Positions 4,498 to 13,591 of a stretch of DNA of 20,405 nt are shown one piece after another; position 1 is the stretch's first letter; each line of letters begins with the position of its first letter. The DNA is taken from assembly GCA_964593225.1 (NCBI GenBank), contig CAZQHJ010000026.1, forward strand, positions 1 to 20,405, in the 5' to 3' direction. This DNA is from an uncultured Thiotrichales bacterium (GTDB lineage Bacteria > Pseudomonadota > Gammaproteobacteria > HK1). Position numbers and translations under genes: made by a program. The notes beneath the pieces are model-generated. The model made no database searches and was not told the DNA's origin. It saw only the letters and a program-made list of their open reading frames with translations.

Positions 4498-5415
4498 ATG
4501 CACCGCGCCACCCTCTTTGTAGAACAAGCCGAAATCCTCTCCCGAGAAAGCTTCCAGGGCGATCGGATCATCCTGCGGATCGCCGCGCCGCGCATCGCGG
4601 CGGCAGCGCTGCCCGGCACATTCCTCCACGTGCGCTGCGACCCGGAACGCCCCATGCGAAGGCCGATCTCCCTCATGGCCGCCGAGCCGGCCAGTGGCAG
4701 GCTCACGATTCTGTTCAAGGTGGTCGGCAAGGGGACCGAACGCCTTGCCGCCAGGGCGGTGGGGGATGTGCTGGATATCATCGGGCCCATAGGCACCGGG
4801 TTCCGACCACTTGAGGACCGTCCCCGCGCGCTGCTCGTTGGCGGCGGCCTTGGAATCCCCCCCATGGTGTTCCTGGCCGGGTGGCTCGCCCAAGGAGGCC
4901 AAACCTCGAAAAGGGCAGGGGAGGGAGGAGGGGGGGCGTCCCCCGCCCAACCCGCCGCTTACCGACCACTCCTCTTGATGGGGTCCGAAATACCCTTTCC
5001 CTTCCATCCCTGTCCCTCCCGCCTTCCCGTTCCCGCGCCGGATGGCGTCACCGCCGCCATGCCCCTCATGGAAGCGCTGGGCATACCCAGCCGCCTCGCC
5101 AGCCGGCGGGGTTATCCCGGCAGCTTCAATGGATGGGTCACGGCGCTGGCGCGGACCTGGCTCATGGCGCAACCTCCCGGCGCATACCGGGACATCGCGT
5201 TATATGCCTGTGGCCCCGAACCCATGTTACGGGCCACCGCCCACCTTGCCCGGGAATACGACCTGCCGTGCCAGGTCTGTTTGGAGGAATTCATGGCCTG
5301 CGGGGTCGGCGCCTGCGCGGGGTGCGCCGTTCCGGTCACAACCCCGGCGGGCGTCGCCATGAAGCGGGTCTGCGTGGATGGGCCGGTGTTCGATGCCGGG
5401 GAGGTTTTCGGTTGA
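4498..5415 (+). CDS. PyrK-family FAD/NAD(P)-binding oxidoreductase with C-terminal [2Fe-2S] cluster (dihydroorotate dehydrogenase electron-transfer subunit-like), orphan
   Basis: RRPISL...(FAD binding), LLVGGGLGIPP (NAD binding), C-terminal C-x-C...CGVGACAGC...VCVDGPVF are all typical of PyrK and related sulfide-dehydrogenase/GltD partner subunits. No catalytic partner gene is adjacent. Confidence 0.65.
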   Translation: MHRATLFVEQAEILSRESFQGDRIILRIAAPRIAAAALPGTFLHVRCDPERPMRRPISLMAAEPASGRLTILFKVVGKGTERLAARAVGDVLDIIGPIGTGFRPLEDRPRALLVGGGLGIPPMVFLAGWLAQGGQTSKRAGEGGGGASPAQPAAYRPLLLMGSEIPFPFHPCPSRLPVPAPDGVTAAMPLMEALGIPSRLASRRGYPGSFNGWVTALARTWLMAQPPGAYRDIALYACGPEPMLRATAHLAREYDLPCQVCLEEFMACGVGACAGCAVPVTTPAGVAMKRVCVDGPVFDAGEVFG

Positions 5416-5835
5416 AAGTGCCTTATGCAAAGGCATTGCCGACTTTCACGCTCTGAATTACGGAAGGATACATTGCTATATCGTACCGACCTGGAGGAGG
5501 CCTATGGCGAAAAACCGAGCCTGGGCACCCATGGGGGGGCGGTGTTTGGGTTTGAGCGCCTGGTGTGGGCATGATTCCGCTGACTGAAATCACGTGGTCC
5601 CCCTTTGCCGGACGAAGCATGTTCGGAAGACACTCAGGTCGTGGTCGAGTTTCAATACGCTCTCGAACTTCGACCGCTTCTCACAACCAATAAGGACAAC
5701 CTCTTCTTAAATATATCCTAAAGATCTTTCCCTTCGGTGGGGATGACAGTTGTATTTCACTGTGAAATTAAGATGGAACGAGCCACTACGGCATTTCGGC
5801 AATCTCCTCGAAACCTGCCTCGCTTTTCGAAGCGC

Positions 5836-6230
5836 CCGGAAAACTTTCCAAGTGCCCCGGCATACTTTCCGTGGATCTCGGATGGTTTTCCCCGATCCCG
5901 GGAAAGCCTTCCCGAGTCACGGGCAACCTTTCCCGGACCCCTGGCAAGCTTTCCCGCCGTCCCGGAAAGCCTTCCCGGATCGCCGGAAAGTTTCCCCGGG
6001 ATCCGGTAAATCTTACGCAAGGTTCCGGCGGGTCTGCCGAGTATCCGGTTCGCTTTCCCCATGATCCCGGCAGACCCGCCGAAGGTCGAATCCGGCTTTC
6101 CCGAGTTCCCGGCAATTTTCCGAGGTTCCGGTCAATCCCGCCCGGTATCCCGGAAAAGCTTCCGGCCTACCGGTGAAAGCCCTCCGGCATCGGGCCAATC
6201 CCACCGAGGGTTCGGGAACGTTTTCCTCGT
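5836..6230. repeat. Array of ~18-20 degenerate tandem repeats of 20-22 bp, with 10-11-bp sub-period; consensus approx. TTTCCCGG-N3-5-CCGGAAAGC
   Basis: TTCC(C)GG / CCGGAA motifs recur at 5846, 5866, 5887, 5909, 5929, 5950, 5972, 5990, 6023, 6054..., spaced 20-22 bp apart, with half-sites about every 10.5 bp. All six reading frames stay open across it, so it is a stop-free repeat rather than a gene. Lies immediately upstream of the flotillin start at 6270. Confidence 0.6.
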
Positions 6231-6269
6231 CCTTGCCCCGCAGGGCCGAGATGGCCGAACAACTGGGAG

Positions 6270-7814
6270 ATGGAACAGATGTGGAGTGAAATAATTTCTT
6301 ACCTGATTTTCGCGCTGGCGATCGTGTTGGTGTCGTTCGTGGTGTTTATCATCAAGAACTATCGGGTTATCGGGGCCAATGAGGTCGGCATTATCTCCGG
6401 CATTTTCCGAAGACAACGAATCCCCGAGACCGGGAAGATTAGGAACTATACCCTCCTGACGGGTGGCGGCGTGCTTGTCTGGCCCGTGATCAACCAATTG
6501 AATATCCTGAGCCTGGCGCTGCGAGAGATAAAGATAGATTTGGATGTTAGAACCAAGGAATACCTCCCGCTGAAGTTGACTGTCGTATTGGTATTTCACA
6601 TCGATGGCCATGGCGATCGATTGCATGTTGCCGTGAGCCTTTTTACACAAAGAACCGACCCGGACGACCAATTCGTCGAGGATTTACTGATGGGCAGTCT
6701 TCGAGACGTCATCGCGGGCATGTCCTACCATGAGCTACACAGGGAACGGGGTCGCCTCGAGGAGGAAACCCAGGGGTTCGTTCAAGGGAGATTCGACGAG
6801 TTGGGGCTGAAGGTCACCAGCCTCGTTATCCAAAATTTGACGCCAAAGGAGATTCCCCAAGACAAAGACGATTTTTGGGCCGTCAAGGCAAGAGAGGCCA
6901 TGGCGGAGATCATGCGGGAGACGGACAGTAATATTGCGCAGCAGGATAGCCTGAAAGAATCGGCGCTTGCGAAGGCTGACGCGGAAAAAGCAATCAATGT
7001 TTTCAACTCACGGAGAGATGAGTTTATCGCCGCGGCAGAGACCAGGAAAGAACAAGAGATCTCCCAACGCAATCTCGACCGGGATGTTTTCATTAATGGA
7101 CAAAAAGCGCAGGAATCGGAGGAGTCTCAAAAGAAGGAAACGGAAAGAAACATCGGGATAGTAGAGCAAGAGACGCGGAAAGCGATGGAAATTGCCAAGC
7201 GTGAAGCAGCGCGAGATATCAGAATCAAGGATGAGGAGGCGTTGCGGGACGAAGTTTGCAAAGAACAAGAACGCATCGAGGAAACCAAACTCAAAAAAGA
7301 GTCGACGCGAGCCGAGTCCGAAGTTGCCAAGGTTCGGGCAGACAAGCAAATCAAGTTGGAGACGGAAGACGCAAGAAAGCTGGAAAGCCTCCGGGAAAAC
7401 GAGATCACACGGGAAATCGATACCAACAGGGCGGCGATCCAGCAGGATATCGGCGTGGCGCGAAGGGATGCCGAACGCCAAATCAAGGTGGCGAGCATCA
7501 ATGCCGCGCGGGACGAGCGGCTACGCGAGCAGGAGACGGAAAGGGAGATCGTGGAGAACAAGAAGGAACTCTTGAAAACCCGAGACGAGATGAAGGCCAT
7601 CGAATTCGATACCAATGTCAGATCCCACCGGGCCGAGCTCGTGCCGCCCGTACTGGCGGAGAAGGAACAACAGGAAACCCAGGCGAACATCAAAAAGGCC
7701 GTGTTGGTCATCGAATCGTTGGCGCGCCTCTCCGCCGCCGAAAACGATCGCAACGCCAAGGCCTTCGAGGCCGAAGGCAACCTCCGTCTGGTCCAGGCGG
7801 AAGCGGAGGGGTAA
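6270..7814 (+). CDS. Flotillin (FloT/YuaG-like SPFH/band-7 protein): N-terminal TM anchor, SPFH domain, long E/A/K-rich coiled coil. Terminated by an in-frame TAA at 7812-7814
   Basis: Architecture and local motifs match bacterial flotillin: TM, then KNYRVIGANEVGIISG, TGGGVLVWPV, LRDVIAGMSYHELHRER, then long EA-rich heptads. RBS GGGAGA precedes the ATG. The conserved flotillin C-terminus continues in the same frame after the TAA. Confidence 0.8.
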   Translation: MEQMWSEIISYLIFALAIVLVSFVVFIIKNYRVIGANEVGIISGIFRRQRIPETGKIRNYTLLTGGGVLVWPVINQLNILSLALREIKIDLDVRTKEYLPLKLTVVLVFHIDGHGDRLHVAVSLFTQRTDPDDQFVEDLLMGSLRDVIAGMSYHELHRERGRLEEETQGFVQGRFDELGLKVTSLVIQNLTPKEIPQDKDDFWAVKAREAMAEIMRETDSNIAQQDSLKESALAKADAEKAINVFNSRRDEFIAAAETRKEQEISQRNLDRDVFINGQKAQESEESQKKETERNIGIVEQETRKAMEIAKREAARDIRIKDEEALRDEVCKEQERIEETKLKKESTRAESEVAKVRADKQIKLETEDARKLESLRENEITREIDTNRAAIQQDIGVARRDAERQIKVASINAARDERLREQETEREIVENKKELLKTRDEMKAIEFDTNVRSHRAELVPPVLAEKEQQETQANIKKAVLVIESLARLSAAENDRNAKAFEAEGNLRLVQAEAEG

Positions 7815-8276
7815 AAGGCAAAACTCATTGCCGACGCCGATGGCCTCAAGGCGCAACTCTTTGCCCAGGTCGATAGCCGAACGGCCCTGGCCGATGCCTT
7901 GAAGGAGGTGGATGACGCGACCAAGTTTTTCCTCTTCTTCAATGAGACCCTGGAACAGTTCCCCGAGATCCTCCGCGCCCTGGTGGGCGAACCCGGGCTG
8001 GCGGGCGTATTCGGGGAGATCGCAAAACCTCTCGGACAAATCGACAGCATCCGAATCGTCGATTTTGCCGGACAGAATGGCGCCGCTTCCCGCCTCTCCG
8101 AACTGGCGGAGGTCAGCCCTCGGATCGTCTTGAACTTCCTCTCCAAATTCCAGGCGGCCGGTTTCGGCGATATCATCAAAAAGCTTGGGATCTCCAACGA
8201 ATGGCTCGAAGAATTTGTGGAAAAAAAGGTCGGCGCGCCGGGCGATACGTCGAACGGCCCGACAACGGATCGATAG
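7815..8276 (+). CDS. C-terminal portion of the same flotillin, in frame downstream of the TAA (track ORF 7899-8276 is its internal-Met version)
   Basis: Same frame as 6270-7814. Sequence KAKLIADADGLKAQLFAQ...LPE...PLGQIDSIRIVDFAGQNGA matches my recollection of the flotillin C-terminal block (…AAIFDMIVKMLPE…PLSNIDKITVVDTGG…). Confidence 0.6.
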   Translation, partial: KAKLIADADGLKAQLFAQVDSRTALADALKEVDDATKFFLFFNETLEQFPEILRALVGEPGLAGVFGEIAKPLGQIDSIRIVDFAGQNGAASRLSELAEVSPRIVLNFLSKFQAAGFGDIIKKLGISNEWLEEFVEKKVGAPGDTSNGPTTDR

Positions 8277-8285
8277 CGCATCGTC

Positions 8286-9542
8286 ATGAATCGGACAACA
8301 CACGCCAATGCCCCGCCGGGCGAGAGAATCGACTCCCTGATGCGGTTCCTGTGGTGGTGCTCCGGGGCCGTCGTCTCCATGCTGAAAGACTACCCAACCG
8401 AATACAGCAAATATTTCGGGATAGGCGGCGCCATCTTCACCACCTGGTTGCTGGCGACCATCAGCGGCATCTATGCCTTCTACACCATGATTGGGAGTTA
8501 CTTTGTCGCGATTCCCATTGGCATCGTCTGGGGCTGGGTCATCTTCAATCTGGACCGGTTCATCACCTCCAGCATGAAAAAACCGGGCAACGAGATCGAC
8601 GAGGCCTTTTTCTCCGAACGCATCGGGGCCTTTCTCTCGGAATTCCTGCCGGCGATTCCCCGTATTCTGATTGCCGTGATCATCGGTTATTCCATCTCCA
8701 TTCCCCTGGAACTGCGGTTGTTCGAGTCCGAGGTGCTGGAACAGGTAAAAGAGATCGAAAAGATCGAGATGCAGCGGTACGTGGAGCGACTGCGCCAGGA
8801 ACGGGACAAGGTCATCTCTTCCCTCAAGTCCGAACGCGTAGCATTGAAACAGGAAGAAGACGAACTGCGCGAGGAATACGGACGCGGTCGGGAAGAAATC
8901 GCGCGCATGGAAGAACGCATCAAGGGACTTCGGCGGGAGTTGCAGGCCGATCTTGAAGAACACGCCTCGAAGATCACGGCGTTCCAGGCGGAAATAACCG
9001 GAACTGGCGGAACCGGACTGCCGGGCTATGGCAAAGTGGCGGGCCTCAAGGAGGATTTGATGAAAAAAACCGGCGATTGGTATCAGTCGAGCCAGGATCA
9101 AACCATGAAAAGGATCGAATCCATGGGTCAGCGGATTCTGGAGATCAACGGACGCCATAACCAATCCGCGCTCCGGCTCGATAGGCAGCTAACAGGTATC
9201 GAAACCGAGATCGAAAAAGCCAAGGAAGCGTTCGAGAAAGAGAAAGACAGGGTCCACGAAGAAGGCATGCGCCACGGGTTCCTGACCCAGGTCAAGGCGC
9301 TCTATCGGGTCTCGGCCCAGGAAGGCAACGAGGCCATCGAATGGGCGCACACCATCTTCGTGCTCCTGATCATTCTGGTGGAACTGGGTCCGATCATCGT
9401 CAAGCTGCTCTCGCCACGCGGACCTTACGATGCGCGGGTCGACCGTGAAAACAAGTTGGCGATGATCGGCATGGATAATGATGTGATTAAAGAACGTTCG
9501 ATAGCCATTCGAAATAGAAGAACCGGGAAGCACTTGACGTGA
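8286..9542 (+). CDS. DUF4407-like membrane protein: N-terminal multi-TM region, ~200-aa coiled coil, C-terminal TM helix
   Basis: N-terminal RFLWWCSGAV...YFGIGGAIFTT...NLDRFITSSMKK matches my recollection of the conserved DUF4407 (PF14362) N-terminus; this is unverified. ELRLFESEVLEQ...coiled coil. IFVLLIILVELGPIIVKLL C-terminal TM. Sits 10 bp after the flotillin stop. Confidence 0.6.
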   Translation: MNRTTHANAPPGERIDSLMRFLWWCSGAVVSMLKDYPTEYSKYFGIGGAIFTTWLLATISGIYAFYTMIGSYFVAIPIGIVWGWVIFNLDRFITSSMKKPGNEIDEAFFSERIGAFLSEFLPAIPRILIAVIIGYSISIPLELRLFESEVLEQVKEIEKIEMQRYVERLRQERDKVISSLKSERVALKQEEDELREEYGRGREEIARMEERIKGLRRELQADLEEHASKITAFQAEITGTGGTGLPGYGKVAGLKEDLMKKTGDWYQSSQDQTMKRIESMGQRILEINGRHNQSALRLDRQLTGIETEIEKAKEAFEKEKDRVHEEGMRHGFLTQVKALYRVSAQEGNEAIEWAHTIFVLLIILVELGPIIVKLLSPRGPYDARVDRENKLAMIGMDNDVIKERSIAIRNRRTGKHLT

Positions 9543-9567
9543 ATTCCGGCTAAATAGAGGAAATCGT

Positions 9568-11424
9568 GTGACACAAAAACAGAATCCTATCCCGGAGCGA
9601 GAGAAATCTTCCGGTCATCCTTCCGAGGTTCACCAACTAAAGGAAAAGTTGGAACAGGAGGTCTCCAATCTGAAAGAGGCAAATAATAGGGTATCGAAAA
9701 AACTGACGGTTTTCCCAACATTCACGATGTTGCTTTTGGTGACGATATTTCTTCTATTTATTTCCTCTGTCGTCGTGAATGACATACGTATGGCCAGGCA
9801 GATAGAAAACCGGATAGAGCTATCCAAAGGCGAGATAGAATCCTCGCTAACGGATGCCATCACGCATGATATGCTGGGTGAAATAGCGAAAATACAAGAT
9901 ATATCCGATGGCGCCGCACTGATCGAAAGATTATATAAAATCGCTGAAGAAACCAATCAACAGCTGAAAGATAAAATCAGCCGAATAGAATTTCAGCAGA
10001 ATATGATTGTCGATGGCGCGCAAGGGGCCCTGGAGAATATGTATTTTATATTCACCGCGGTGGCGGCCTTGTTTTCCCTCCTCGGCATTTACTTTGCCTA
10101 TCGGCATATTCACTTGGAATCGAAAAAGGAGGAATCACAGGAAAGGCACGACCAGGAAATGAGAGGCCTGGTGGGATCATTCCAGAACAACATCAATACA
10201 ATCAATTCTCTGGTGGCCACATTGGAGAAAAGCTACGCATATAGACAAATTGTAGAAGAGCAAATAGAAGAACTAAAAGAAGATGCCTCTTTATTCGAGA
10301 AGCGTCACAAGGAAGATGAAGAAAAGTTTCGTCAATCCATTGCTGAGCTCAACGCTAATGCGGTAAGGCTCTACAAAGCAAATATCTCCAGAACCACGTT
10401 GAATCAGGAGGAACGAAGGCGAGAGTTGAATGCTTTCGCTAACCGGATGAGCAATATGGAATCCAGTCGCGACATAGCAAGCGATATAAATCCCTTCTGT
10501 TATTATATGCGCGGATTGAGCCATGTCGCCAACTATAGATTCATGGATGGAATTAGGGATCTGGAAACTGCCTATAAAAAAGGCACGGACGATTTGTCAG
10601 GAATAAAAGAAGAAAACTATGCAGGGGAGCACATAATCCGTATACGCGAAGATCTAAATAAGATGCTCGTTGACGCGTGTTACTTTCAGGCCAATTCCTA
10701 TAAGAATCTGGGAAAATATAAAGAGAGTATTGCCAAGTTCTCCGAGGCCATTCGGCTCGATCCCAAACACCTGGACTCACTTGTTACCAGAGTACAGGTG
10801 ATGTTCTTCGATAAAGATGTCCCATTTGGAGCGGTTGAAGAAGAGTGTGAAAAACTGGATCGGGCATTCAATTCGTTCAGTGATGCGGACGTTGACGAGG
10901 CTGCCTTGAAAGAGGCGAAAAAATTCCTGAAACTTTACCAGGGAAATATGTATTTAAGTAAGGAGAAGCGACTCTTGCCGAAATTCCGTGCCGCATATGA
11001 GAAGTATGAGGATAAGGCGAAGGCACTGGAATTCTACGGGCAGGCATATGATGATTCTCCATCGGCTCGCCCTGCCTTTGCCGTTGCGCAGGCTATGGAG
11101 GGCGTTGGGCCATCCTCCTGGAGAAGGGGAGAAACACCGGAGAAGATGTATGAACGAGCAATAACAAAACTAAAGGATAGGGTAACACACGACCACGACC
11201 TCATATATTCCGTCATGTTGTACTATATGTTGGCCATTTGCGCGTGCAATCTACCGAGGAGAAAAGAAAGCGCGGAAATGTACTTATCACAAGCGCGACA
11301 GTGTTTAAAAGAGTTGCCTGGCGATATCACTTACTTCTCGCCCATGAACAAAATCAGATTGAAGCGGGCGGAAATATTGGAAGAAATGAACGAATTCGAG
11401 CGATCTTTTATAAAAAATAGTTGA
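9568..11424 (+). CDS. Hypothetical 618-aa membrane protein: two TM helices bracketing a ~90-aa loop, then coiled coil and TPR-like C-terminal repeats; markedly AT-rich gene
   Basis: GTG start with RBS AGAGGAAA. TM1 VFPTFTMLLLVTIFLLFISSVVV and TM2 MYFIFTAVAALFSLLGIYFAY. TPR-like ANSYKNLGKYKESIAKFSEAIRLDPKHLDS. GC is visibly lower than the flanks. 26 bp downstream of the DUF4407-like gene. Confidence 0.65.
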   Translation: MTQKQNPIPEREKSSGHPSEVHQLKEKLEQEVSNLKEANNRVSKKLTVFPTFTMLLLVTIFLLFISSVVVNDIRMARQIENRIELSKGEIESSLTDAITHDMLGEIAKIQDISDGAALIERLYKIAEETNQQLKDKISRIEFQQNMIVDGAQGALENMYFIFTAVAALFSLLGIYFAYRHIHLESKKEESQERHDQEMRGLVGSFQNNINTINSLVATLEKSYAYRQIVEEQIEELKEDASLFEKRHKEDEEKFRQSIAELNANAVRLYKANISRTTLNQEERRRELNAFANRMSNMESSRDIASDINPFCYYMRGLSHVANYRFMDGIRDLETAYKKGTDDLSGIKEENYAGEHIIRIREDLNKMLVDACYFQANSYKNLGKYKESIAKFSEAIRLDPKHLDSLVTRVQVMFFDKDVPFGAVEEECEKLDRAFNSFSDADVDEAALKEAKKFLKLYQGNMYLSKEKRLLPKFRAAYEKYEDKAKALEFYGQAYDDSPSARPAFAVAQAMEGVGPSSWRRGETPEKMYERAITKLKDRVTHDHDLIYSVMLYYMLAICACNLPRRKESAEMYLSQARQCLKELPGDITYFSPMNKIRLKRAEILEEMNEFERSFIKNS

Positions 11425-11505
11425 TGATCGGCCTCTCGAGTGTATTAAAAATTTATCCGGTTTTAAGGGTTCGTAGCGAGAGGAAGTGGAGTCGGGAAAG
11501 AAATC

Positions 11506-12993
11506 GTGAACAAAAACGCCAACCTATACACACAATTCACCCATCACTTCCCCGAGGACCGCTCCCGAATCGTCATCGGGACGCCCACCGGGCAAAGCCG
11601 GTCCTATGGAGAGCTGGAACACCGGAGCGCCCGCCTTGCCAACCGCCTCACGGGGCTCGGCATCGGCAAGGGGGACCGGATTGCCGTCCTGGTGGAAAAA
11701 TCCCCCGAAGCGCTTTTCCTATATCTCGCCTGCCTCCGGGCCGGGATCATCTACCTGCCGCTCAATACCGCCTACCGATTACCGGAAATCGATTATTTCT
11801 TCTCCGACGCGGAGCCCAAGGCCGTGGTGTGTCGGCCCAAGGCATGGGAAGAGATCGCCCCACTGGCGGCGCGACACGGAATCGGACAGGTCCTTACCCT
11901 GGGAGAAGAAGGGGAGGGGACGCTTATCGAGATGGCCGGATCGGGTGATTCGGAATTCGAGACGGTCCCTTGCAAGGAAGAGGAAATTGCGGCCATCCTG
12001 TACACCTCCGGCACCACCGGACAGCCCAAGGGCGCCCTGTTGACCCACGGGAATCTTGCTACCAACGCGCTTACGCTAAAAAAGGCGTGGCGTTGGACCT
12101 CATCCGATGTGCTGCTCCATGCACTGCCGCTTTTCCATGTACACGGCCTCTTCGTGGCCTGCCATTGTGTGTTGATGAGCGGGGCCAGGATGTTCCTGCT
12201 GCCAAGGTTCCATGTGGATTCCGTATTGGCCCGGCTACCCCAATCGACGGTGTTCATGGGCGTGCCCACCTATTACAGTCGGCTATTGATGGAACAGGAA
12301 TTCGACGCCGATGCCTGCCGCGCCATGCGCCTGTTTATCTCGGGATCCGCGCCATTGCCGGAAAACGTCTTCCATGCCTTCCGGGCGCGTACCGGCCACG
12401 CCATCCTGGAACGCTACGGCATGACGGAAACCCTCATGAATACCTCCAACCCCTACGATGGCGAGAGAAAACCCGGTAGCGCCGGACCGGCATTGCCGAA
12501 TGTCGGTGTGCGCATCGTCAATGCGTCACCGGAAGGGGTTGGGGACATCCAGGTCAAGGGGCCGAACGTCTTCAAGGGATACTGGCGTCTGCCGGAAAAG
12601 ACCGCGCAGGAATTTACGTCGGATGGTTGGTTTCGGACCGGCGATCTTGGGACCCTGGACGAGGCGGGATACCTCTTTATCGTCGGTCGGGAAAAGGATC
12701 TCATCATCACCGGCGGCTACAATGTCTATCCCCGGGAGGTGGAACGCGTCCTGGATAGCATCGATGGTATACGGGAGTCGGCCGTCATCGGCCTGCCCGA
12801 TGTGGATTATGGGGAAAGGCTAACCGCGTTTGTGATACTTGAGCCAAATCGGAAAACCATCACTGCGGAAGAAATCATTGCCATGCTAAAACAGTCCATC
12901 GCAAACTATAAAGTGCCCAAACAGGTACGGTTCATCGACGAATTTCCCAGAAACGCCATGGGAAAGATCCAAAAAAATTTGCTGCGCCATTAG
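11506..12993 (+). CDS. AMP-dependent acyl-CoA synthetase/ligase, malonyl-CoA synthetase (MatB)-like, 495 aa
   Basis: AMP-binding motif I LYTSGTTGQPKGALLTHGNL, YGMTET, TGDLG...GREKDLIITGGYNVYP, and C-terminal K of the ANL superfamily. GTG start preceded by GGGAAAG. Confidence 0.85.
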   Translation: MNKNANLYTQFTHHFPEDRSRIVIGTPTGQSRSYGELEHRSARLANRLTGLGIGKGDRIAVLVEKSPEALFLYLACLRAGIIYLPLNTAYRLPEIDYFFSDAEPKAVVCRPKAWEEIAPLAARHGIGQVLTLGEEGEGTLIEMAGSGDSEFETVPCKEEEIAAILYTSGTTGQPKGALLTHGNLATNALTLKKAWRWTSSDVLLHALPLFHVHGLFVACHCVLMSGARMFLLPRFHVDSVLARLPQSTVFMGVPTYYSRLLMEQEFDADACRAMRLFISGSAPLPENVFHAFRARTGHAILERYGMTETLMNTSNPYDGERKPGSAGPALPNVGVRIVNASPEGVGDIQVKGPNVFKGYWRLPEKTAQEFTSDGWFRTGDLGTLDEAGYLFIVGREKDLIITGGYNVYPREVERVLDSIDGIRESAVIGLPDVDYGERLTAFVILEPNRKTITAEEIIAMLKQSIANYKVPKQVRFIDEFPRNAMGKIQKNLLRH

Positions 12994-12996
12994 GTG

Positions 12997-13216
12997 CAGG
13001 GCAACCGAATGAAACTGTTTTCCAATTGCCATTGACGTATTTTGTTGCCGGAACATAGCCCTTTTGAGGAATTCGAAGGCAAGTTCGAAGCTTGGTCTCC
13101 TTACTATCGATAGTCAAAACCGGGCGATTTCAACTAAAACGGGCTCTGTTGGACACCGGAAACACCTCCATTTGCCAGATTTGTCAATATAAAAATACTT
13201 TCATTCGGTTGCCCTG
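12997..13216. mobile_element. MITE: 220-bp AT-rich non-coding element with perfect 18-bp terminal inverted repeats CAGGGCAACCGAATGAAA (12997-13014 / 13199-13216), flanked by a 10-bp direct target-site duplication CCATTAGGTG (12987-12996 and 13217-13226)
   Basis: All read directly from the sequence. The left duplication copy contains the TAG stop of the acyl-CoA synthetase gene. No ORF in the interior; the imperfect inverted repeat extends to ~26 bp. Confidence 0.6.
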
Positions 13217-13591
13217 CCATTAGGTGTAGCATTCCATGAAATTCTGATAAACTCTGTTTTTCGGGAACAAAGCCGGGAATACCGGATTGTGCTTCCGACT
13301 AAGGCAAGAATGCGCGAGAGAGCTGCGTTTACGAAAGGTAAGTGGGCATTTCCTCGTATCTTCAACGCACTCAGGGAGTACAGATGGATTTGTATATCGC
13401 TTATTTTCATTCATAATAAGCTTTATCCGCCCTCGTGTGTAACTTTTTTCCGGCAAGCTATTGATTTTCCGAATGCCGTTTTTTAGCATGGACCGAAGAT
13501 AATGGCGCCGGAAAAAAGTTGCACGCGAAAGTTTTTCCGTATAAAACTTGTTTTCAATCAATTTTCCGTTAACTAACGATGGAGACTGCAA

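Follow-up and report, generated by a model that had tools for sequence, protein, structure and literature searches.

BvgA, which acts at the Bordetella promoters Pfha and Pptx, binds as head-to-head dimers spaced every 22 bp along one helical face of the DNA, with six dimers at Pptx and with TAAGAAATTTCCTA as the primary site (PMC7250471). Here we describe a tandem array of comparable geometry in a 20,405-bp stretch of DNA (hereafter, the window), which is one whole contig of 'Candidatus Kentron (Kentrum) eta', a gammaproteobacterial ectosymbiont of ciliates. The array is composed of about 20 head-to-tail units on a nearly rigid 21.0-bp lattice, i.e., two helical turns, and precedes genes for a flotillin-like SPFH protein, a DUF4407 protein, and a single-TPR protein. 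It is like the BvgA arrays in having inverted TTTCC-type heptad half-sites whose centers recur every 21-22 bp on one face, in the degeneracy of most sites, and in its position directly upstream of an operon (PMC7250471). The BvgA arrays, however, contain three to six dimer sites and end at a recognizable core promoter, whereas the ~20 units described here are accompanied by neither a detectable -35/-10 element nor a neighboring regulator gene.

Several other classes of repeats share part of this design. Iterons of lambdoid phages and plasmids are tandem 18-22-bp units with internal dyads in helical phase, as exemplified by arrays on the phage contigs L123, L125, and L126; such arrays, within O-like genes or upstream of a primase-helicase gene, occupy bona fide positions for protein-binding iterons. 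In contrast to iterons, the Kentron array has no initiator gene or DnaA box, lies in chromosomal housekeeping DNA, and exceeds the usual four to nine copies several-fold. Partition centromeres such as sopC of F and parC of pSK41 and R1 are also head-to-tail dyad repeats, on which a dimeric protein builds a filament or superhelix, and the two blocks of the Kentron array around a distinct center recall R1 parC. Unlike those centromeres, the array is accompanied by no ParA/ParM or ParB/ParR gene and no parS match, and nothing marks the contig as a plasmid. Repeats of the repetitive extragenic palindrome and bacterial interspersed mosaic element (REP/BIME), BOX, and MITE (miniature inverted-repeat transposable element) types are intergenic, palindromic, and non-coding, as is this array; in addition, related arrays elsewhere are multi-copy, and that of the sister species Kentron sp. 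FM lies among MITE-like repeats. The window array differs from these in its strict head-to-tail order and fixed 21-bp period (REP-type repeats are single or alternating palindromes), in the absence of a GTAG/CGTC tag from its consensus unit and of terminal or flanking inverted repeats around it, and in that the unit has no second occurrence within this 20-kb contig. Finally, the sponge RNAs CsrB and RsmZ come to mind, because the array is ~400 nt long and presents ~20 GGA-containing motifs on its minus strand in a gammaproteobacterium; unlike those RNAs, it shows no Rfam match, no promoter or terminator of its own, and no covariation, and its GGA motifs are in predicted stems.

Phased tandem dyad repeats are a known kind of element, and what sets this array apart is its size, its location on the chromosome with no cognate gene, and the way it recurs at an acquired SPFH-DUF4407 cassette's edge. 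A literature search for a described class of 21-bp palindromic arrays returned nothing specific. We read the array as a DNA-level lattice of operator- or iteron-like sites for a dimeric binding protein, and assign this reading a probability of roughly 0.4. A dimeric regulator had already been suggested in an earlier annotation of this DNA (the original prediction), and it remains the best-fitting explanation in view of the rigid register, the position-specific conservation, and the lack of hairpin covariation.

Architecture of the Array

The array and its subdivisions, none of which is assigned to a strand, are as follows.

5803..6243, whole tandem array (autocorrelation, local periodicity profile, Tandem Repeats Finder (TRF) blocks, and unit table)
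5824..6012, left block, nine well-kept units in strict register (lag-21 identity 0.50-0.71)
6013..6096, degenerate middle, 84 bp or four unit lengths (dip in periodicity)
6097..6243, right block, about seven units with a register drift of -1 to -3 bp (unit table and periodicity profile)

Autocorrelation of positions 5800-6250 yielded identities of 0.474, 0.523, and 0.479 at lags 21, 42, and 63, all above the maximum of 0.369 reached over 500 shuffles. The periodicity is significant, and the tandem array with about 18-20 helically phased copies of a 20-22-bp unit that had been proposed here was confirmed as far beyond chance. Autocorrelation peaks fall on exact multiples of 21 up to lag ~273, and at lag 336 their shift amounts to only -1 to -3 bp. 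At least 13 units thus stay in register, drifting by no more than 3 bp over 400 bp, although they are only ~50-70% alike. In a sliding analysis, identity at lags 20/21/22 exceeded the 99th percentile of the contig (0.50) at ~5810-5984 and ~6090-6159 and stayed above the background mean between these two stretches; the repeat can be traced from ~5803 to ~6230, and its best-kept stretch in the local periodicity profile is 5866-5990. Because the units are degenerate, TRF found only the best-kept blocks, namely 5825-5870, 5887-5998, and 6097-6136 (period 19-21; 67-80% matches).

On a strict 21-bp grid, the consensus of the plus strand is TTTCCCG-nnn-TCCCGG-AAAGC and that of the minus strand is CGGGAAAGCTTTCCGGGA-nnn; the unit consists of a ~16-bp dyad core, CCGGAAAGC and TTTCCCGG on the two sides of its axis, and a ~5-bp spacer. 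Compared with the rest of the contig, TTTCC is 18-fold and CCGG 6-fold denser in the array. For the most part, the unit equals its own reverse complement. Dyad centers are spaced 10.5 bp apart (at 5885.5, 5896.0, 5906.5, and onward), with a dyad complementarity of 0.53-0.70 over ±60 bp vs. a shuffle maximum of 0.52, and this 10.5-bp lattice follows automatically from the repetition of a ~16-bp palindromic core with a ~5-bp spacer. The conserved parts of the unit are TT(T)CC and CCGG, and GGAAA occurs in only five units. The earlier description of two opposed half-sites in every unit thus holds for the consensus, in which they are ~10.5 bp apart, but not for each copy.

The left block contains 62 nt that are self-complementary about position 5948.5 and includes the TRF block 5887-5998. 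In the middle of the array, a perfect 14-nt GC-rich inverted repeat (CGGCGGGTCTGCCG at 6026-6039 and CGGCAGACCCGCCG at 6068-6081, with 28 nt between the arms) divides the array into its two blocks. The last units of the right block are barely recognizable, and the block ends 36 bp short of the flotillin ATG.

Conservation is uneven across the unit. The variance of column conservation on the unadjusted lattice was 0.0305 vs. 0.0165 ± 0.0048 under an equal-rate null (p ~0.004), a significance that may be overstated because that null supposes a star genealogy of the units; T2, C4, C5, C13, and G15 are nearly invariant. Changes in one arm of the palindrome are not matched by compensating changes in the other: for the junction dyad, 67 of 133 cells were complementary within units vs. 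65.5 ± 3.6 between units (p = 0.39), and for the within-unit dyad the values were 55 and 56.0 ± 3.3 (p = 0.67). This lack of arm-to-arm compensation indicates that the hairpins are not under selection. Independently kept half-sites are a prediction of recognition by a protein, not of an RNA or single-stranded DNA hairpin.

Intrinsic curvature, which had been predicted from the phased A/T tracts, was not significant in a wedge model: the ratio of end-to-end distance to contour length was 0.77 vs. 0.88 ± 0.07 for shuffles, of which 5.7% were equally bent, and a control with phased A-tracts gave 0.34. The array of Kentron sp. FM followed a path that was straighter than random in the same model. 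No difference in the 863-bp spacer that contains the array was seen among eight independent assemblies, of which six are complete and two partial. All eight are clonal, matching the window at 100% identity over up to 17.8 kb, which leaves this comparison with low power; what it demonstrates is limited to clean assembly of the array and a lack of hypervariability within the population.

The Downstream Cassette and Its Counterpart in Kentron sp. FM

The array is followed by a cassette of three genes, the first of which is split.

6279..7814, plus strand, SPFH/Band-7 (flotillin-like) gene, first gene 3' of the array (Pfam Band_7; FM homology starts at 6279)
7899..8276, plus strand, detached C-terminal fragment of the flotillin (83% identical to FM residues 556-678)
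8286..9542, plus strand, gene for a DUF4407 membrane/coiled-coil protein (Pfam PF14362, E = 2e-63)
9568..11424, plus strand, gene for a 618-amino-acid single-TPR protein, third in the module (FM homology ends at 11422)

The same three-gene cassette is present in Kentron sp. FM, with 73-88% nucleotide identity (window 6279-11422), in another genomic context. DNA homology between the two species begins exactly at the flotillin ATG (6279), and it is this codon, not 6270, that starts the gene. Upstream of this ATG, BLAST aligned nothing between eta and FM, neither the arrays nor their flanks. Nevertheless, FM also has an array, with 10 units at a strict 21-bp spacing, ~470 bp upstream of its flotillin gene. 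The FM unit, cgtaTTCGAAGcTTCGAATAt, is a 16-bp palindromic core (ATTCGAAG and CTTCGAAT about its axis) plus a 5-bp spacer and generates the same 10.5-bp dyad lattice; it has no GGA motif. The two arrays have architecture and position in common, but not sequence, and both possess a 42-bp higher-order period.

In one FM assembly (L009), positions 6470-12895, just 3' of the cassette, contain an integrase gene, small open reading frames (ORFs), and an 889-amino-acid Toprim/primase-like gene, which resembles an island of the P4 or phage-inducible chromosomal island (PICI) type; the other FM assembly (L010) has an MMPL transporter in place of this island.

The GC content of the cassette (0.42-0.55) is below that of its surroundings, and the SPFH-DUF4407-TPR operon is horizontally acquired. 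In eta, the flotillin ORF of 511 amino acids stops at 7812-7814, while the FM orthologue has 678 amino acids. The stretch between the two eta ORFs is open in another frame, with the frameshift near GGGGTAAAAGG at ~7808-7816. All eight assemblies share the identical break, which could reflect programmed frameshifting, a gene that is truly split, or a pseudogene. SPFH and DUF4407 form a conserved pair in other loci (L009-L017), once directly after a TIR-domain gene (L015); outside these loci, DUF4407 is found mostly in Bacteroidota. PADLOC returned only weak matches of the coiled-coil type for the module, and SPFH-DUF4407-(TPR-like) could be a defense or membrane-stress module. No consistent upstream array was seen in the more distant SPFH-DUF4407 loci (L015-L017) or in 80 DUF4407 loci of Bacteroidota (L018-L097).

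A Putative Binding Lattice for a Dimeric Protein

We favor the binding lattice because the register of two turns is rigid, conservation is uneven, the half-sites are kept without compensation, and an array is present at the same place in FM. Each unit descends from a dyad core of ~16 bp to which a spacer of ~5 bp is joined, an arrangement that sets inverted TTTCC and CCGG(AAA) half-sites every ~10.5 bp and whole sites every two turns on one DNA face. Dimers of a sequence-specific DNA-binding protein, presumably encoded elsewhere in the genome, could occupy successive dyads; neighboring dimers would touch and coat ~420 bp, which would form the 5' boundary of the SPFH-DUF4407-TPR operon, and this coat may gate transcription into the operon, probably through repression or as a roadblock. 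By analogy, the geometry of such a lattice would match that of lambda O protein on iterons and of ParR or SopB on centromere repeats. Protein binding, the identity of the protein, and the effect on the operon are what we infer from the DNA.

A number of observations weigh against this interpretation. About 20 sites far exceeds known operator arrays. A consensus scan of 5300-6500 revealed no sigma-70-like promoter in or beside the array, and no gene for a DNA-binding protein was detected in the window or the module by Pfam and a dedicated search. The frameshift in the first downstream gene possibly leaves little to regulate, and the star genealogy assumed in the conservation test counts on the same side. 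In FM, at least one further, partial copy of the edge of the array with its flank is present on another contig (P0125; 84% amino acid identity), and the array and a 110-bp near-perfect palindrome (1043-1153) are bracketed by two inverted ~190-bp MITE-like copies (864-1051 and 1557-1717, within 864-1717 of L010), the arms of which are 93-95% complementary. In metagenomes, arrays with the same core occur in every intergenic orientation, including between convergent genes (L108), beside unrelated genes. One of them, the TTTCCCGTGGCTTGGAAAAA element of a freshwater organism, is found at three or more loci of that organism (with gidA, ParA-like, and Sel1-repeat neighbors), and one locus of this element, recovered from two samples with 99.3% identical flanks (L113 and L117), has 18.5 units in one version and 25.5 in the other, i.e., 7 units of difference. 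The more specific proposal that the array controls the flotillin module was not supported, given that no promoter was found, the module encodes no DNA-binding protein, and similar arrays occupy varied contexts.

Alternative Explanations

The main rival sees in the array a palindromic minisatellite that is selfish or neutral, in which a 21-bp unit prone to hairpins expanded by slippage or unequal exchange, possibly arrived with a small mobile repeat, and now decays in a 'junkyard' spacer beside an acquired cassette without a role in the cell. We consider it rather unlikely, if the most serious competitor of the binding lattice. A scan for two adjacent consensus cores identified 20 loci, a rarity among 241 million metagenome records, with ~13 distinct arrays that repeat every 20-21 bp in 4-40 copies. 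The metagenomic and viral arrays have their core and their 20-22-bp period in common because the search patterns demanded both, so they show recurrence, not homology. Two further arrays were reached through spurious ORFs, that of L119 with nine copies of CAGGGAACGATTCCCTG and that of L120 with 14.7 copies of CGGGAGAGCCTCCCG; the latter adjoins a 116-amino-acid protein that contains only a sigma-70 region-4 helix-turn-helix.

The neighbors of these arrays are diverse and mutually unrelated, as the minisatellite reading would have it, and include gidA, an NlpC/P60 gene with a Sel1 protein gene, nuoH, an M23 peptidase gene, and the gene for trigger factor. The L108 array lies between the convergent genes for a 207-amino-acid ParA-like protein and gpsA; that of L103 is next to FtsX, followed by a TIR-FHA gene and a Ser/Thr kinase gene; and that of L110 neighbors a LysR regulator gene downstream of a PDC-S06-like ATPase gene. 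In the multi-locus case, the 20-bp unit TTTCCCGTGGCTTGGAAAAA is present in 15-40 copies that are ~90% identical, within a larger element with conserved flanks, and the copies of this element are located as follows.

L108, 1107-1412
L109, 11684-12475
L113, 10267-10636
L117, 11334-11843

One flank of this element ends in a hairpin that is followed by a short weak T-run (ATTTTC), and the element may be a mobile repeat or else a gene for a non-coding RNA that is present in multiple copies. Also in keeping with a minisatellite are the 7-unit difference between L113 and L117, the partial second copy and the MITE-like surroundings in FM, the 42-bp higher-order period of both Kentron arrays, which is typical of satellite-like growth, the end of eta/FM homology exactly at the ATG of the flotillin gene, and units that are strongly degenerate. 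Against it stand a register that has shifted by no more than 3 bp in 400 bp although substitutions are heavy, non-uniform conservation across the unit columns, the matching architecture and placement of the arrays in two species with otherwise unrelated flanks, and the absence of the unit from the rest of this 20-kb contig.

A structured RNA that acts through tandem hairpins, whether as a leader of ~450 nt on the flotillin operon transcript or as a non-coding RNA of its own, is improbable in our view. Neither a sigma-70-like promoter nor a plus-strand terminator was found in the consensus scan of 5300-6500, and because of this, transcription of the flotillin operon probably starts further upstream and runs across the array; with the array ending 36 bp from the ATG and no promoter seen downstream of it, the array would probably be within the operon transcript. 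Compared with shuffles, the two strands have a much more stable predicted fold (z = -5.4 and -5.6), but excess folding energy comes with any palindromic repeat and does not differ between the strands here. As a variant, the minus strand, with ~30 GGA triplets, might serve as a CsrB-like sponge: the size and repeat number of the array resemble those of CsrB, and CGGGAA-AGC-UUUCCG, the core on the minus strand, can fold into a hairpin of 6 bp, one of them G-U. Rfam, however, gave no matches at gathering level and none that recurred in two E-value scans (sub-threshold matches to CC3664 and tsr1 disappeared on re-scan), the hairpin arms show no compensatory changes, the FM array lacks the GGA motif, a promoter/terminator pair was not found, and a rigid helical register is unnecessary for the function of an RNA.

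An undescribed class of elements may also be considered, in which 21-bp dyad arrays nucleate a cooperative filament at the 5' edge of acquired membrane or defense cassettes and thereby silence or gate them; this is speculative, and we think it quite doubtful. The cassettes in question would conceivably be SPFH-DUF4407 (linked to TIR in a relative), the TIR-FHA and Ser/Thr kinase genes of L103, and the PDC-S06-like ATPase gene of L110. A core that co-evolves with an unlinked regulator would explain why architecture is kept in the two Kentron and sequence is not.

More doubtful still is a relic replication origin (iterons) or partition site (centromere) of a mobile element, carried along with the cassette. 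Phage contigs provide its models, with 18-22-bp arrays of the GGGAAC.GTTCCC type inside O-like replication-initiator genes (L125, 8327-8403; L126, 3200-3256) and just upstream of a primase-helicase gene (L123, 3597-3681), TTCGAA arrays upstream of terminase genes, and an array of 11.7 copies inside a 495-amino-acid ORF; the phage-contig arrays are probably origins and packaging sites. The two remaining phage-contig arrays, in the 495-amino-acid ORF and terminase settings, are at the following positions.

L133, 2458-2702
L153, 4136-4260

The ParA-like gene beside the L108 array, the low GC of the cassette and its differing contexts in two species, and the integrase-primase island nearby in one FM assembly would fit this origin as well. 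Conversely, the window contains no initiator (Rep/O), partition, integrase, or transposase gene; the DnaA box TTWTNCACA has no match within 5416-6278, nor does the chromosomal parS consensus in the spacer with up to three mismatches; a BLAST search of the whole intergenic region matched no plasmid or phage record; and the arrays of eta and FM are unrelated in sequence.

It is very improbable that the tract is a protein-coding heptad-repeat gene or a slippage-driven phase-variation tract: a 21-nt period does equal seven codons and stops are depleted, but every frame carries stops, the ORFs have no Pfam match on either strand, and the apparent relatives are translated DNA arrays, so that a coding array was rejected, while units of this length that are degenerate (50-70% alike overall and 67-80% matches in the best blocks) and an array length that is identical in eight clonal assemblies speak against phase variation, which the original prediction had also raised.

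Spurious Heptad-Repeat Proteins

The array had been described as stop-free in all six frames, which proved incorrect: it holds seven stop trinucleotides on both strands vs. 23 ± 4 expected, with one or two stops in each frame. No ORF spans the whole array, and the longest covers ~75% of it. That these ORFs are spurious, as originally proposed, was borne out by their homologues, and a search for a conserved protein family in any one frame did not reveal one. When the 109-amino-acid ORF of the minus strand was compared by phmmer with 1.8 billion representatives, it gave 66 matches driven by the repeat, many of which are short 'hypothetical proteins' made of R-E-x-F/L-P-x-x heptads. The DNA behind the L098 match is a 21-bp array, CGGGA(A/G)nnCTTTCCG plus 6 nt, the core of which is the same as that of the minus strand of the window. 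Its codons for Arg, Phe, and Pro (CGG, TTT, and CCG) do not differ even in the third base, whereas the spacer codons vary, and this invariance places conservation at the DNA level and not at the protein level. Heptad 'hypothetical proteins' of this kind are P0138, P0144, P0157, P0160, P0162, P0168, P0178, P0184, and P0189 (loci L098, L119, and L120), and such entries in public collections are likely gene-calling artefacts over stop-poor 21-bp arrays. For the FM array, a gene caller predicted a 159-amino-acid product, and a 164-amino-acid ORF at this place has one database relative only, namely a second, partly diverged, non-coding-like, paralogous copy in FM, with which similarity is lost past the flank of the repeat.

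Genomic Setting

The remaining features around the array, in gene order, are as follows.

Proton-antiporter/NADH-dehydrogenase-like gene pair, minus strand, first in the gene order around the array
surA, after the antiporter-like pair and before the pyrK-like gene
4498-5415, pyrK-like gene, 5' neighbor of the spacer that carries the array
5416..5802, plus strand, non-repeated part of the spacer (sequence read directly)
Acyl-CoA-ligase-like gene, then aprBA and others, 3' of the gene for the 618-amino-acid TPR protein

The array occupies the promoter-proximal half of the 863-bp spacer between pyrK and the flotillin gene. The non-repeated part of the spacer contains a hairpin right behind the pyrK stop (~5417-5440) and an AT-richer stretch at 5680-5790, and its fold is no better than that of shuffles (z = 0.08). 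It also contains a 27-codon ORF (5504-5587) with a GGAGG Shine-Dalgarno sequence and GGAGGAGG in front, and a palindrome, TTTCACTGTGAAA, at 5767-5779, which is parS-like with one extra central base, yet fails the parS test.

Elsewhere in the window, an AT-rich spacer of ~600 bp (12994-13591; GC ~0.43) lies upstream of aprB/aprA, which encode adenosine phosphosulfate (APS) reductase. A short ORF of 105-112 amino acids on the minus strand (377-715) matches the C-5 cytosine DNA methylase family PF00145 and is probably a gene fragment. CCGG, which is the best-kept tetranucleotide of the array, is a common target of C-5 cytosine DNA methylases.

Significance

The practical warning from this work is that stop-poor arrays get called as genes, which seeds public databases with spurious heptad-repeat 'proteins'. 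If the array is a selfish repeat after all, it documents a type of palindromic 21-bp minisatellite that recurs in metagenomes. If, on the other hand, the binding lattice is true, it would extend the geometry of iterons and BvgA sites to a much larger chromosomal array, and its ~20 phased sites would provide a bait for the regulator of an uncharacterized SPFH-DUF4407 cassette in an uncultured symbiont.

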